From Escherichia phage AV106, in sequence record OR352937.1: a stretch of 50,922 nucleotides of DNA; one strand, 5' to 3'. Made by a program: the position numbers and the translations under genes. Under the pieces are notes generated by a model. The model was not told the origin of the DNA, did not search any database, and saw nothing but the letters and a program-made list of their open reading frames with translations. Below, one piece after another: positions 45,923 to 49,067 of this stretch (position 1 is the stretch's first letter; each line of letters opens with the position of its first letter).

Positions 45923-46330
45923 ATGCTTCTTCTTTTAGATCTGTTCAGGTTCTGCGAAGGTTACGACAAATACACTCGACAGCACATAGCGAAATTTATA
46001 TACGCCCACAAGGAAAGTGAGCGTTTTGCTAAGGCTGCTGGAATGACTCGCCGTGAATTTACAAGCGCGCTATCTAAGGAGTTTTGCGCTCGTTGCGTGA
46101 CTGAGGGTTACTTAGATCGCAATGATGGAGTTTACTGGTGCAAGGGAAAGATTAAGCGCCCGGTAATGATGAAGCTGATGTGTATTGATGGCTACAACAA
46201 TCGGTATACGTGGGAAATGATGCACATTGGAGAGATGAGTGATGAAGATTTGTTTGGCGAACGTAGAAACATTGATAGATCGGAACGTCGAATTGTGCGC
46301 AAGGCTCCAGCTTACGAAAGAAGAATTTGA
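45923..46330 (+). CDS. Hypothetical protein
   Basis: 135 aa; several Cys (CxxC-like). Confidence 0.35.
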   Translation: MLLLLDLFRFCEGYDKYTRQHIAKFIYAHKESERFAKAAGMTRREFTSALSKEFCARCVTEGYLDRNDGVYWCKGKIKRPVMMKLMCIDGYNNRYTWEMMHIGEMSDEDLFGERRNIDRSERRIVRKAPAYERRI

Positions 46331-46442
46331 GCAAGGGTTGTTGAGTCTGTTACTCACTTCAATGAGGGCCAGTAACGAAAGCGAGCATAATCTTTGCGAT
46401 AAGGAGGGGGAGTTACTCCTTCATGTGAAAAGGTACAAATAA

Positions 46443-46470
46443 GAAAGGAGGCTTAGCCTCCTTTTTTTCC
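46443..46470. terminator. Bidirectional terminator between the convergent plus early array and lysis cassette
   Basis: AGGAGGC-tta-GCCTCCT followed by TTTTTTT. Confidence 0.6.
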
Positions 46471-46857
46471 GTTCTTACGAAGTGAAAAATAAATCATCAA
46501 CAGGCCAATAAAAACGAGAGTCCACCCTACAATTGCATCGTACCAGTTCCCCGGTTTTGTTACCGTGATGCTTTCAGCGTTAACCGTGTTAGCCTGAATG
46601 GTTGACACTTCTACAGACTTCTTGACGGATGAGTCAATCTTGCCAATATTTGAATCACTCACCTTCACTTCTCGCTTATCGTCGGCCTTTGCAGTAACTC
46701 CCGCCAGTTGCTTCGTGTTCTCAGCGCCAACCTGCGCAGTAACATCCGGGGAGTCAGAAAGTAAACCGCTCAGAGCAGATGCCGTCGAGCAACCGGATAG
46801 AGAAATAACACCAACAGCCACTGCAATCGCAATGCACGTTTTCTTCAGTTTCATCAT
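46453..46857 (-). CDS. Unimolecular spanin (lipoprotein with C-terminal transmembrane anchor)
   Basis: 134 aa; N-terminal signal peptide with lipobox LSGC and C-terminal helix [19 protein letters not shown], the topology described for T1 gp11; directly downstream of the endolysin. Confidence 0.6.
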
Positions 46858-47342
46858 AATTCCTTAACGCAATACGCGTATTCTTCAGCGCGTCGGTTCT
46901 TTAGTCCTCTAGACACTTCGCGCTTTTTGGTTTTTGGGTTGTAGTAGTATACCCATCGCCATAACTGATTGCACGCTTCCTTGTGCTTACTCTGATTTAT
47001 TAGCTTAAGCATTGTAGAAGATCCGAACGCGCCAGTACCGACGTTGAAAGTGAAGCTGTACAGTGACGCGCGCATCGTTACCGGAATATCAACATTCACC
47101 TTTTTGTCAACGTATCGCTGAGCGACTCCGATATGTTTTATCAGCAATGCATCGCATTCTCGCTTAGTGTATTTCTTGCCAGGTATGACGTCCGGCCCGG
47201 TTATTCCGCTGCATACTGTAGGGACTCCGGCTATATCGTAATACACCTCGTATTCTATCCCTTCGATTCGTTCCAGTAGTGTAGGTGTCAACGTCAAAGC
47301 GGCCCCGATCGATGCGCCTATAACGTTATTTTTTAAGCTCAT
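46854..47342 (-). CDS. SAR endolysin (phage lysozyme with signal-anchor-release N-terminus)
   Basis: 162 aa; Gly/Ala-rich weakly hydrophobic N-terminus [17 protein letters not shown] followed by the conserved lysozyme core (EGxxY...VPTVCSG...YSFTFNVG); resembles P21-type R lysozymes; RBS GGAGATA. Confidence 0.75.
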
Positions 47343-47557
47343 TATCTCCCCCTGATCTTAAGCGCCTTATTTAGATCGCCATCGTTTAACGCTTCCTGAA
47401 TCGCCTTGCTATCACGATACTTCCAGTATGCTCCCCAAGCACCAAAAAGCAGAAAGCAAATGAATGTAGCGCCAGCAATGTAAAGTTGCCCGGTAGCGGC
47501 CCCGACTAATGAAGCGCCGCCCGTGCTGGACGTCGCAGCGGTTAAAAATTCTTTCAT
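47342..47557 (-). CDS. Holin, pinholin-like with two transmembrane segments
   Basis: Start moved to ATG (MKEFLTAA) behind RBS GGTGAG; TMD1 Gly/Ala-rich (SAR-like), TMD2 [14 protein letters not shown], charged C-terminus; directly upstream of the SAR endolysin. Confidence 0.55.
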
Positions 47558-47675
47558 AATCTCACCATATATTTTTTGAACAAGTGAGTCGATTTTAACC
47601 TTCAAATTTATTTTATACAACGCAAAAAGGCCAGCATGTAAATCATGCCAGCCCGTAAGGTTATGAATGATATTG

Positions 47676-47852
47676 TTAATCTAGCTCAATAAATTCCAGG
47701 TAATGACCATTCAGAGGAGCTTGGATTGTTGAACCTCTACCATCGTAAATCTCAAACAATCCACCTCCGAAATCATAACCAACACTATAGATCTGATTTA
47801 CGCGGAATGGAAGCGTTTTGGAATCATTTCGGATGCACTTAACTCGTTTCAT
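47676..47852 (-). CDS. Hypothetical small protein (58 aa, absent from the ORF track)
   Basis: ATG behind RBS AAAGAGGG, with a degenerate dyad motif and TATATT 22 bp apart upstream; translates MKRVKCIRNDSKTLPFRVNQIYSVGYDFGGGLFEIYDGRGSTIQAPLNGHYLEFIELD. Confidence 0.35.
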   Translation of the reverse strand: MKRVKCIRNDSKTLPFRVNQIYSVGYDFGGGLFEIYDGRGSTIQAPLNGHYLEFIELD

Positions 47853-47881
47853 GAAATACCCTCTTTGTTTTCTATGTGGTC

Positions 47882-47924
47882 AATATACCCGAATCCCTTC
47901 GGGAATTTTTGGCGATTAGTGCGA
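47882..47924 (-). promoter_or_regulatory. Degenerate dyad-motif promoter upstream of small ORF 47676..47852
   Basis: GATCGCACTAATCGCCAAAAA, 22 bp, TATATT; hairpin CCCGAA...TTCGGG. Confidence 0.4.
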
Positions 47925-49067
47925 TCCTGTCATTTCTGGACGATAGATGAATCGACCGATTTCACCAAACTGTTTATCGTAAACGATTACCGCCGCCTGG
48001 CGATATGAGCGCCACCCGCCTCGCGCTGCGTATGCATCTTTCGCGCCTAACTGCCCGTGAACCTCATCAATACCTAACGAGTGCTCAGTGATTGTCTGAT
48101 GATGCCAGTGTCCGCTATGCGTGTACACGTATTTGCTTTCACCAAAATCTGCGCGGAAATCTGCTGCCATAGCTGCGAGTCGAGTCTCTGCTTTTTTCAT
48201 CGTGTGACCGTGAGTATATCCCAGCAAAGTATTTCCCCAGCGAGTCTTATGTAGAACCATAGGGCTTACGTCAACGAATACTCTTGGCTCGTCTTCATAG
48301 TATGCAGCCATTGCGGCGCGCAACCAAATCATCCCGGCCTGGTCGTGGTTTCCTTCGACAACCTGAACTTCGACCTCTTTGTGTTTAGTCAGCATTTTGT
48401 CGATAGCTCGTCGCACCGATCGAATAGCCACATGCACCAATTTCGCATATCGTGAATCCTGATCCAGAACGTGACCACTTGCCGGGGTAACAGCATCAAG
48501 ACCGTCTGAGTGAAGGAAGTCGCCGCCGATTAACAGAACAGCCTTCTCTGCGTTCGGGGCAATATCGATCGCGTAGTTAAAGAAGTCATTCAGCACTTTT
48601 TCCGCTACGTCTGTAGAGTAGTTCTCTCCGCATTCATGCTTGTGAGCAAGCGCGCCAATGTGAAGATCGAACACCGGGTAGAGTGCTAGCTTGCCAATAG
48701 CGGTTGTAAGCCCTTGCGAGGTGAGTAGCTCAGTTGGTTTTGCTCGCGGCAAGTCTTCACAGAATGCAATACGCGCTGCTTCCATCATTGCAGCAATCTT
48801 CTCTCGGTCCTGATCGGTCTTAACCCATCGCACTACCTCGGTCCCATCGCCGCGAATCATCGTTGATGTGCCTTTTACCATGAATCCTTCCGGTACGTTC
48901 TTAGCAACATGCTCGTTACCGTGGAAGTGACCTTCTTTTGCAAGTTTGGCGTGACGCGCTTCAACTGTGCGGATGTGCATACCGTACTTTTCCGCGATCT
49001 CGCGAAGTGTAAGGCCGCTCATGCGCTCTTCGATAAGTTGCTCGGTAGTGATTTTAGCTTGTGACAT
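47916..49067 (-). CDS. Calcineurin-like metallophosphoesterase with N-terminal HTH domain
   Basis: 383 aa; N-terminal LTLREIAEKYGMHIRTVEARHAKL (HTH-like); phosphoesterase motifs GDFLHSD, GNHD, GHWHH. Confidence 0.6.
   Translation of the reverse strand: MSQAKITTEQLIEERMSGLTLREIAEKYGMHIRTVEARHAKLAKEGHFHGNEHVAKNVPEGFMVKGTSTMIRGDGTEVVRWVKTDQDREKIAAMMEAARIAFCEDLPRAKPTELLTSQGLTTAIGKLALYPVFDLHIGALAHKHECGENYSTDVAEKVLNDFFNYAIDIAPNAEKAVLLIGGDFLHSDGLDAVTPASGHVLDQDSRYAKLVHVAIRSVRRAIDKMLTKHKEVEVQVVEGNHDQAGMIWLRAAMAAYYEDEPRVFVDVSPMVLHKTRWGNTLLGYTHGHTMKKAETRLAAMAADFRADFGESKYVYTHSGHWHHQTITEHSLGIDEVHGQLGAKDAYAARGGWRSYRQAAVIVYDKQFGEIGRFIYRPEMTGSH

Follow-up and report, generated by a model that had tools for sequence, protein, structure and literature searches.

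The T1-type lysis cassette of Escherichia phage AV106 and a neighbouring gp14-like SH3 gene that probably belongs to the preceding transcription unit

A minus-strand locus of Escherichia phage AV106 (OR352937.1) carries the lysis cassette of phage T1, and the orthologue of T1 gp14 that precedes this cassette very probably ends the upstream exonuclease/DNA-metabolism transcription unit and lies outside the lysis unit, a reading to which we give a probability of about 0.85. The window, by which we mean the whole stretch of 50,922 nucleotides analysed, was assigned to a T1-like Tunavirus by sequence comparison, and the 74 phage records that match it all come from T1-like phages of Escherichia or Shigella. 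A preliminary description, made from the sequence without database searches, had proposed a pinholin, a SAR endolysin and a unimolecular spanin (u-spanin) preceded by an extra 58-aa ORF. Its four minus-strand ORFs were recovered both in the ORF listing and in the sequence. The features of the locus are:

46444..46464, both strands: bidirectional intrinsic terminator AAAGGAGGC-TAA-GCCTCCTTT (terminator scan; fold -15.0 kcal/mol, z -2.6)
46453..46857, minus strand: unimolecular spanin of 134 aa, T1 gp11 orthologue (87% identity; phrog_1804, E 3.3e-45)
46854..47342, minus strand: lysozyme-type endolysin of 162 aa, predicted SAR, T1 gp12 orthologue (98% identity; PF00959, E 3.8e-33)
47342..47557, minus strand: holin of 71 aa, T1 gp13 orthologue (100% aa identity; phrog_2877, E 1.9e-38)
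47592..47620, minus strand: candidate lysis-cassette promoter, TTGTAT (47620-47615), 17-nt spacer, TAAAAT (47597-47592) (leader conservation)
47628..47654, minus strand: intrinsic terminator separating the 58-aa ORF from the holin gene, with an 11-bp stem, a 5-nt loop and TTTTT (scan; fold -19.9 kcal/mol)
47676..47852, minus strand: 58-aa predicted soluble SH3-like protein, T1 gp14 orthologue, DUF7244 (93% identity)
47888..47903, no strand assigned: short dyad, CCCGAA-GGGA-TTCGGG on the minus strand, past the exonuclease stop (scan; fold z -0.05)
47916..49067, minus strand: metallophosphoesterase-type 'DNA repair exonuclease', T1 gp16 orthologue (71% identity; phrog_704, E 7e-157), which is context and lies outside the lysis cassette

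The orthology of the three lysis genes with those of T1 gp13, gp12 and gp11 bears out the identification of the cassette, and in profile searches each of its proteins matched the corresponding PHROG family (holin, endolysin or spanin). T1 (NC_005833, ST14-ST11) has the genes in the same order, with the same lengths and overlaps, and shares 96% identity in the intergenic terminator and leader. The two holin genes differ by 16 synonymous nucleotides and encode the same protein; over the final 105 nt of the spanin gene, which cover the C-terminal transmembrane domain (TMD), identity drops to 77%. Between its exonuclease gene and gp14, T1 carries an HNH endonuclease gene (gp15) that is absent from AV106 and also from phage KanT1. 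In T1 and its relatives the four genes are annotated as holin, endolysin, u-spanin and hypothetical protein, and the T1-type cassette has already been termed a combination of pinholin, SAR endolysin and u-spanin (PMC6139136, PMC11447400, PMC13164509). Within the T1 cassette the experimental proof concerns gp11 only, the pinholin and SAR labels of gp13 and gp12 being predictions from the literature. The identification of the cassette is a rediscovery of what was already known and adds nothing new: this is the reference T1 lysis system, found in a close relative.

The junctions of the three lysis genes overlap (TAATG and ATGATGA), with the stop of the holin gene overlapping the start of the R21-like endolysin gene, and the 58-aa ORF is set 118 nt away from them. 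The holin ATG is preceded by the Shine-Dalgarno sequence GGTGAG. At the N-terminus of the protein, residues 4-22 form a weakly hydrophobic segment rich in G/A/S/T; one strong TMD (residues 25-45) and a charged C-terminal tail follow. The two segments are linked by only 2-3 residues, compared with about 10 in S21/EssD. EssD (S21) is also 71 aa long and likewise combines a polar, G/A/S/T-rich first segment with a strong second TMD; the dG sums of the two segments are 5.6 and 0.2 in AV106 and 6.5 and 1.0 in EssD. However, no sequence similarity between the two was detectable: BLASTP with EssD gave no alignment up to E 100, and the holins of relatives carry PF27028 (Phage_T1_holin), a Pfam family separate from that of S21, in which the AV106 protein thus finds no place. 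The antiholin form of S21 arises from a second start, whereas a search for such a codon at the N-terminus of the AV106 holin found a single Met only. The pinholin proposal draws on a hydropathy pattern resembling that of EssD and on the SAR-type partner, and finds no support in sequence similarity to the S21 family or in a dual start. Since this similarity is lacking, the holin can be called a pinholin only by analogy. Small-hole formation by T1 gp13 has been proposed or predicted (PMC11447400, PMC6139136). The T1 record describes gp13 as having a 'single transmembrane domain'. A 92-aa form initiated at a TTG was considered and discarded: its translation would begin within the promoter-like element, at a site that lacks a Shine-Dalgarno sequence, and T1 and the PHROG models fit the 71-aa form end to end. 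An NCBIfam search with the holin and the 58-aa ORF returned nothing useful.

The endolysin has the family-conserved catalytic triad E27-x8-D36-x5-T42, which aligns with the triad region of R21. It matches the R21 structure 3HDE with an E value of 7e-34 in an alignment beginning at residue 11, and RrrD, the R21 homologue of phage 21/DLP12, with 45% identity (E 1e-39), co-linear through the N-terminal hydrophobic segment. This segment, V7-L23, consists of 17 uncharged residues, 53% of them G/A/S/T, and includes a Pro and four Thr. It is shorter and less hydrophobic than its counterpart in RrrD (dG 2.7 against 0.15), and marginal. An uncharged N-terminal segment of 15-20 residues is nevertheless present in every member of the endolysin family despite sequence drift, and one or two basic residues precede it in eleven endolysin sequences. 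The proposed SAR character is thus supported as a prediction by the similarity to RrrD/R21, N-terminal segment included, and tempered by the shortness and weak hydrophobicity of the segment itself. The orthologue in the relative Sazh is annotated as 'putative soluble endolysin'.

The third protein shows both elements of the u-spanin topology that had been proposed for it. Its N-terminus carries a signal peptide and the lipobox LSGC with its Cys, as in T1 gp11, whose wild-type lipobox is named as LSGC (PMC6139136). At the C-terminus, hydropathy analysis located a 19-residue TMD at residues 108-126 (Hessa dG sum -1.4), directly followed by the basic tail RKNGKKGG; the periplasmic domain contains no Cys. 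The match to phrog_1804 agrees with this assignment, and the 87% identity to gp11 extends over the full length, beyond the u-spanin family threshold of PMC6139136, which asks for 40% identity or more across 40% or more of the length. Translation may start at a second ATG at 46854, as in the T1 annotation. T1 gp11 complements lambda RzRz1, and its family occurs in pinholin/SAR cassettes (PMC6139136); disruption of the outer membrane by the AV106 allele is predicted from what was experimentally proven for gp11 in that study. Phage 21/DLP12, in contrast, has an Rz/Rz1 spanin.

Two intrinsic terminators delimit the cassette. In the terminator at 46444..46464, the loop contains the stop codon of the spanin gene. 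This terminator ends both the lysis cassette and the plus-strand unit that converges on it; a bidirectional terminator follows the spanin gene in T1 as well, and the T1 record marks a terminator at the same site. The terminator at 47628..47654 is markedly stable for its composition (z -4.1; none of 200 shuffles was as stable). In each of the 21 distinct Drexlerviridae loci examined, a hairpin with a T-tract lies 67-87 nt upstream of the holin ATG, with several different stem sequences and irrespective of the presence of DUF7244, and this pre-holin terminator is independently annotated in phages Chapo and MM01. Just beyond it lies the promoter-like element 47592..47620. The T, A, A and T of its -10 hexamer (TAnnAT) are invariant in 12/12 diverged Drexlerviridae holin leaders, and its -35 part (TTGTAT) is weak and was missed by a consensus scan. 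On the strength of this conservation, we propose that the element drives the lysis cassette. Our literature search found no transcriptomic data on T1-like phages.

The 58-aa ORF is a real gene. It is preceded by the Shine-Dalgarno sequence AGAGGG, matches Pfam PF23896 (DUF7244) over its full length (99.9 bits for a cutoff of 27, E 8.5e-29), and evolves under purifying selection (dN/dS 0.07-0.25). The preliminary description had presented it as previously unlisted, whereas annotations exist for it in T1, as ST14, and in every relative, and it also belongs to phrog_4788. Nor did the 'degenerate dyad promoter' attributed to it withstand analysis. The element meant is probably the dyad at 47888..47903, a 6-bp hairpin within the 63-nt spacer that follows the exonuclease gene, with a fold no better than that of shuffled sequence; in T1, the corresponding site behind gp16 is annotated as a terminator, and the dyad is more likely a weak terminator or a stabilising hairpin than a promoter. 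The region contains 3 promoter-like matches, compared with 4.7 expected by chance. As a promoter of its own for the 58-aa ORF, the sole match, at 47933..47905 (9/12), lies inside the exonuclease gene and was rejected, the region having fewer matches than its shuffled versions.

An AlphaFold2 model of the 58-aa protein shows a five-strand SH3-like barrel (pLDDT 93). Its best Foldseek match in the PDB has an E value of 0.079, and the highest-ranking fold matches are to SH3 and KOW domains of eukaryotes rather than to SH3b; an SH3-bearing endolysin appears at rank 41 at the earliest. Hydropathy analysis revealed neither a membrane segment nor a hydrophobic, signal-like N-terminal segment. In a search for DUF7244 beyond Drexlerviridae, full HMMER returned only 24 representatives at 50% identity, and tblastn with two divergent DUF7244 members matched only phage records of 43-53 kb; in every case looked up, the taxonomy was Drexlerviridae, or the synteny was the same where no family was stated. 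These searches provide no independent genomic context for DUF7244, which is reported in only 188/522 Drexlerviridae (PMC13164509). The protein is distinct from Gp54 of phage Bas11, the trigger of the CapRelSJ46 defence system (PDB 9AXB, PMC11578894): the two show no sequence similarity, and a PDB profile search with the 58-aa protein was empty up to E 10. Gp54 is encoded elsewhere, among early small genes, and the DUF7244 gene of Bas11 is a different one, bas11_0041, which precedes the holin gene.

We take the 58-aa ORF to be the last one of the upstream unit because a terminator and a -10 element precede the holin gene and because, in the two lineages represented by Bas11 and Klebsiella phage K50, the DUF7244 start overlaps the exonuclease stop. 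Insertions of HNH, kinase or other genes always fall between the exonuclease gene and DUF7244, so that DUF7244 adjoins the holin gene, which fits a functional link to lysis. The family is however confined to one syntenic phage group, and adjacency to the holin is therefore inherited and not independent evidence. Phages without DUF7244 have holins and endolysins that look the same as those of phages with it. Read-through of a leaky intrinsic terminator could lead to co-expression of the 58-aa ORF with the lysis genes. Our best guess is that the protein serves as a dispensable accessory that binds other proteins, its tie to lysis being one of position.

The suggestion that the 58-aa protein is an antiholin or lysis regulator can be made more specific: as a cytoplasmic antiholin, or antiholin cofactor, it would time lysis by binding the holin at its charged, cytoplasmic C-terminal tail. 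Phage T4 offers a soluble precedent in RIII, whose target is the holin T, and an antiholin of this kind is possible by analogy. The protein would share a compartment with the holin tail, being soluble and without an export signal; it is under purifying selection, and its gene stays directly upstream of the holin gene even when insertions occur beside the exonuclease gene and is found exclusively near the lysis module (PMC13164509). Yet the conserved terminator and promoter-like element separate the two genes, the overlap with the exonuclease stop ties DUF7244 to the other side in two lineages, and about two thirds of Drexlerviridae have similar holins without any DUF7244 (PMC13164509). Antiholins are typically either holin forms extended at the N-terminus or separate holin-binding proteins of the membrane or periplasm. 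The single Met start of the holin and the absence of a TMD or signal in the 58-aa protein depart from these features, and the confinement of the family to one syntenic group weakens the positional argument, so that we regard this role as possible but unlikely. A 2026 paper proposed instead that the lysis module of Drexlerviridae includes DUF7244, which Pfam places in its SH3 clan, as a standalone SH3 accessory (PMC13164509), a peptidoglycan-binding, SH3b-type module aiding the endolysin in trans. Its SH3-like fold is confirmed by our model. In Gram-positive endolysins, SH3b domains commonly serve to bind the cell wall, but they carry extra strands, whereas the 58-aa protein, with its minimal barrel of five strands, resembles SH3 and KOW domains of eukaryotes. 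As a standalone protein without signal peptide or membrane segment, it would have no access to the periplasm and its peptidoglycan before the envelope fails, and the S21 pinholin/SAR system opens no protein-sized holes. We consider a cell-wall-binding role highly improbable.

The lysis genes themselves could also be read as a canonical large-hole holin with a single TMD and a soluble endolysin devoid of an N-terminal anchor. The wording of the T1 record for gp13 and that of the Sazh annotation would agree with this reading, as would a holin N-terminal segment too polar for stable insertion and only 2-3 residues away from the TMD, and an endolysin segment of just 17 residues with a Pro and four Thr. 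However, the polarity of the holin segment is like that of the first TMD of EssD/S21 (5.6 versus 6.5), and the alignment of the endolysin with the structurally characterised SAR endolysin R21/RrrD reaches the SAR region. An uncharged N-terminal segment would have no reason to persist throughout a family of cytoplasmic enzymes, and the pinholin/SAR pair is the literature consensus (PMC6139136). The large-hole reading is in our opinion very doubtful.

By homology and analogy with these systems, lysis by the AV106 cassette would proceed as follows. The promoter-like element, just downstream of the insulating terminator, would direct expression of three translationally coupled genes. The gp13-type holin would build up in the inner membrane and depolarise it at a set time, probably through small holes, because its partner enzyme needs no large hole. 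The gp12-type lysozyme would be exported by Sec and kept inactive while tethered by its weakly hydrophobic signal-anchor-release segment. R21 is released and refolds upon membrane depolarisation, and its AV106 homologue may be freed and refold in the same way. The gp11-type u-spanin, with its lipid anchor in the outer membrane and its C-terminal helix in the inner membrane, would act last and remove the outer membrane, as experimentally shown for T1 gp11. The gp14 orthologue would be a soluble cytoplasmic SH3-like barrel, made from the last gene of the preceding exonuclease/DNA-metabolism unit.

The standalone SH3 protein of KanT1 (PMC13164509) belongs to the same family as the AV106 58-aa protein and occupies the same position between exonuclease and holin genes. 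The terminator is not mentioned in that account, whereas here the conserved terminator and -10 element place the SH3 gene outside the lysis unit. A more speculative, and in our view quite unlikely, role for gp14-type barrels is that of a cytoplasmic pinholin regulator supplied by the upstream unit, which would hold the holin tail, or the switch from exonuclease to lysis, until the set time. To our knowledge, no trans-acting cytoplasmic antiholin has been described for a pinholin/SAR system; if this role were true, gp14 would be the first. For the Drexlerviridae as a family, membership of DUF7244 in the lysis module appears positional, because the terminator precedes the holin gene in all lineages examined, even those without the SH3 gene, and the proposed cell-wall-binding role of DUF7244 conflicts with the absence of an export signal.

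The four minus-strand ORFs of the preliminary description were present both in the ORF list and in the minus-strand sequence:

46453..46857, minus strand: spanin ORF, 134 aa
46854..47342, minus strand: endolysin ORF, 162 aa
47342..47557, minus strand: holin ORF, 71 aa from an ATG with a GGTGAG Shine-Dalgarno sequence
47676..47852, minus strand: 58-aa ORF (gp14, DUF7244)

Stop/start overlaps (TAATG and ATGATGA) join the three lysis genes, and a gap of 118 nt separates the 58-aa ORF from the downstream holin start. Megablast of window positions 46300-48000 returned 74 phage records, every one an Escherichia or Shigella T1-like siphophage, the best at 95-97% identity. The T1 reference record, whose order is common with the window, lists gp16 exonuclease, terminator, gp15 HNH endonuclease, gp14, gp13, gp12, gp11 and terminator, gp14 being a 58-aa protein labelled hypothetical and gp13, gp12 and gp11 the holin, endolysin and spanin. 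In T1 the HNH gene lies between the exonuclease terminator and gp14 (T1 locus L005, 5957-6583), whereas the window lacks it. The exonuclease-gp14 spacer of the window is only 63 nt long (47853-47915), and the last ~30 nt 5' of the gp14 ATG, conserved in both phages, form the boundary of the HNH insertion. Global alignment to T1 gave amino acid identities of 100% for the gp13 holin, 98.1% for the gp12 endolysin and 87.3% for the gp11 spanin, which identifies the cassette; values for gp14 and the gp16 exonuclease are 93.1% and 71%. The holin gene differs from that of T1 at 16/216 nt positions with no amino acid change and the endolysin gene at 36/488 with three; strong purifying selection acts on both.

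The proposed unimolecular-spanin topology was borne out: the protein carries an N-terminal LSGC lipobox, the same as that of its orthologue T1 gp11 (PMC6139136), and a C-terminal transmembrane helix (residues 108-126), it matches phrog_1804 (E 3.3e-45), and no periplasmic cysteine was found in it. T1 gp11 complements a lambda Rz/Rz1 defect, and only two members of its family lie outside pinholin/SAR-endolysin cassettes (PMC6139136). Identity to T1 falls to 77% over the final 105 nt of the spanin gene (46453-46557, encoding the C-terminal TMD and tail), versus 92% for the remainder, where a single residue differs apart from an extra N-terminal Met; either a recombination edge beside an indel site or a rapidly evolving membrane anchor could account for this divergence. 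Between the gp10-like gene and the spanin gene end (46331-46452), the close relatives Chapo, XJA18, LeonhardEuler and the Sfin phages have ~295 extra bases (compared at positions 1532-1948 of loci L001 and L002) with a plus-strand ORF of 216-342 nt, missing from the window, T1, EF3-1 and JMPW1.

The pinholin assignment held by analogy but not as to family. The holin, which matches phrog_2877 end to end and whose relatives carry their own Pfam family (PF27028, Phage_T1_holin), has a polar stretch rich in Gly/Ala/Ser/Thr (residues 4-22, dG 5.6) followed by a strong TMD (residues 25-45, dG 0.2), compared with 6.5 and 1.0 in the S21-family pinholin EssD of DLP12. It shows no sequence similarity at all to EssD, its two segments are linked by only 2-3 residues and its N-terminus has a single Met. 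By this analogy, 'pinholin' describes how a gp13-type holin probably works, and not membership of the S21 family; T1-type holins were 'proposed to be class II pinholins' (PMC11447400). The holin of Klebsiella phage K50 (L027 2729-3032) seems to have been annotated as two pieces, a 45-aa 'holin' and a 51-aa 'hypothetical'; by tblastn and translation it is one 79-aa protein, in which 8 residues form a duplication-like internal insert (KALQEDSRALRE).

The endolysin has a lysozyme core (PF00959, E 3.8e-33) with the triad E27-x8-D36-x5-T42, is 45% identical to RrrD, and aligns, from residue 11 and hence into the SAR region, with R21, a SAR endolysin of solved structure (3HDE, E 7e-34). Its uncharged N-terminal segment (V7-L23) is 53% Gly/Ala/Ser/Thr, and is shorter and less hydrophobic than that of RrrD (Hessa sum 2.7 vs 0.15 for a 17-mer). 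All 11 diverged family endolysins examined keep, despite sequence drift, an uncharged segment N-terminal to the catalytic Glu, preceded in each by one or two basic residues, as a signal anchor would need. Gp12 has been termed 'a predicted SAR endolysin' (PMC11447400); contrary to this reading, the endolysin of the relative Sazh is annotated 'putative soluble endolysin'. As described for T1, the holin would trigger, the SAR endolysin would be released and activated, and the unimolecular spanin would disrupt the outer membrane. Direct experimental support is confined to the spanin step and to the T1 allele.

The 58-aa ORF, presented as previously unlisted, is T1 gp14, annotated in every relative inspected, and matches Pfam DUF7244 (E 8.5e-29) and phrog_4788. 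Pairwise dN/dS is mostly 0.07-0.25, the AlphaFold2 model is a five-strand barrel (pLDDT 93), and the protein has no hydrophobic segment; this is a real gene, for a predicted soluble SH3-like protein. Foldseek of the model against the PDB gave nothing better than E 0.079. A computational-only 2026 paper identified DUF7244 as a standalone SH3 domain, found in 188/522 Drexlerviridae and without exception near lysis genes, and proposed an auxiliary lysis role by analogy to the SH3 domains with which Gram-positive endolysins bind the cell wall (PMC13164509). Among 1.84 billion proteins, only 24 representatives at 50% identity were found, which makes DUF7244 a very narrow family. All tblastn matches are phage records of 43-53 kb, and those whose taxonomy was looked up are Drexlerviridae or, where the record names no family, share the same synteny. 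Adjacency to the holin is thus inherited within one syntenic group and does not count independently towards a functional link. Recurrence of small SH3-like proteins in these phages is suggested by Bas11, which has two unrelated barrels: Gp54 (L008 14781-14981), the CapRelSJ46 trigger (PDB 9AXB) encoded among early genes, and Gp41 (L008 8760-8930), the DUF7244 protein encoded upstream of the holin.

Two further minus-strand features lie between the 58-aa ORF and the holin:

47654-47628, minus strand: intrinsic terminator, 11-bp hairpin then TTTTT
47597-47592, minus strand: candidate -10 TAAAAT, an instance of the invariant TAnnAT, with TTGTAT 17 nt upstream

The hairpin (-19.9 kcal/mol, z -4.1) was matched in stability by 0/200 shuffles. 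We surveyed 21 distinct loci, drawn from Tunavirinae, Tempevirinae, Braunvirinae, Rogunavirinae, Webervirus and Kyungwonvirus, over the 170 nt 5' of each holin start. A hairpin with T-tract ends 67-87 nt 5' of the holin ATG in all of them; the script called 18, and the other three, with the L007-type hairpin GGGGGC-TTTAT-GCCTCC and then T5, escaped its tail rule. Stem sequences vary between lineages. The terminator is also found in the four loci without DUF7244, directly 3' of the exonuclease or an inserted kinase gene, and two other groups annotated it independently in phages Chapo and MM01. Downstream of it, TAnnAT is invariant in 12 aligned diverged holin leaders, and in the window TAAAAT and TTGTAT are compatible with a -10 element and a weak -35. 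Most non-Tunavirus Drexlerviridae leaders (L008 9030-9045, L023, L027, L028, L030, L034, L035 and L036; alignment A3) share a conserved ATTGACA block downstream of TAnnAT, ~20-25 nt 5' of the holin ATG, present in the window and in T1 only in degenerate form (CTTGTTCA); as a holin -35 it was ruled out, being too near the start codon.

The 'degenerate dyad promoter' attributed to the 58-aa ORF did not hold up: it is a 6-bp hairpin (47888-47903) folding no better than chance, and the T1 record labels the equivalent element a terminator. In plus-strand orientation the dyad, with AATTTTTGG behind it, registers as a terminator; there is no end of a plus-strand gene in its vicinity, and it may halt antisense transcription.

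Exonuclease stop and DUF7244 start codons overlap in Bas11 and Klebsiella phage K50. On sequence grounds, this overlap, the conserved terminator and the invariant TAnnAT make the 58-aa ORF the putative last gene of the upstream DNA-metabolism unit, separate from lysis transcription, and show the lysis cassette as an apparently insulated unit by itself. However, inserted genes always fall between exonuclease and DUF7244 (HNH in T1 and MM01; kinase and others in ACG-M12 and L006), so DUF7244 remains beside the terminator and holin. Most likely, the 58-aa protein serves the upstream unit as a dispensable, protein-binding accessory in the cytoplasm, linked to lysis by position. A cytoplasmic regulator of lysis timing is possible but unsupported, and a peptidoglycan-binding helper is the least likely of the three, since the protein could not reach the periplasm until the envelope fails.

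The lysis genes and the 58-aa ORF described here are all already in databases and the literature. The small additions are the conserved terminator and leader 5' of the holin and the position of DUF7244 outside the lysis transcription unit; they bear on the 2026 DUF7244 proposal (PMC13164509) and leave the overall picture unchanged.
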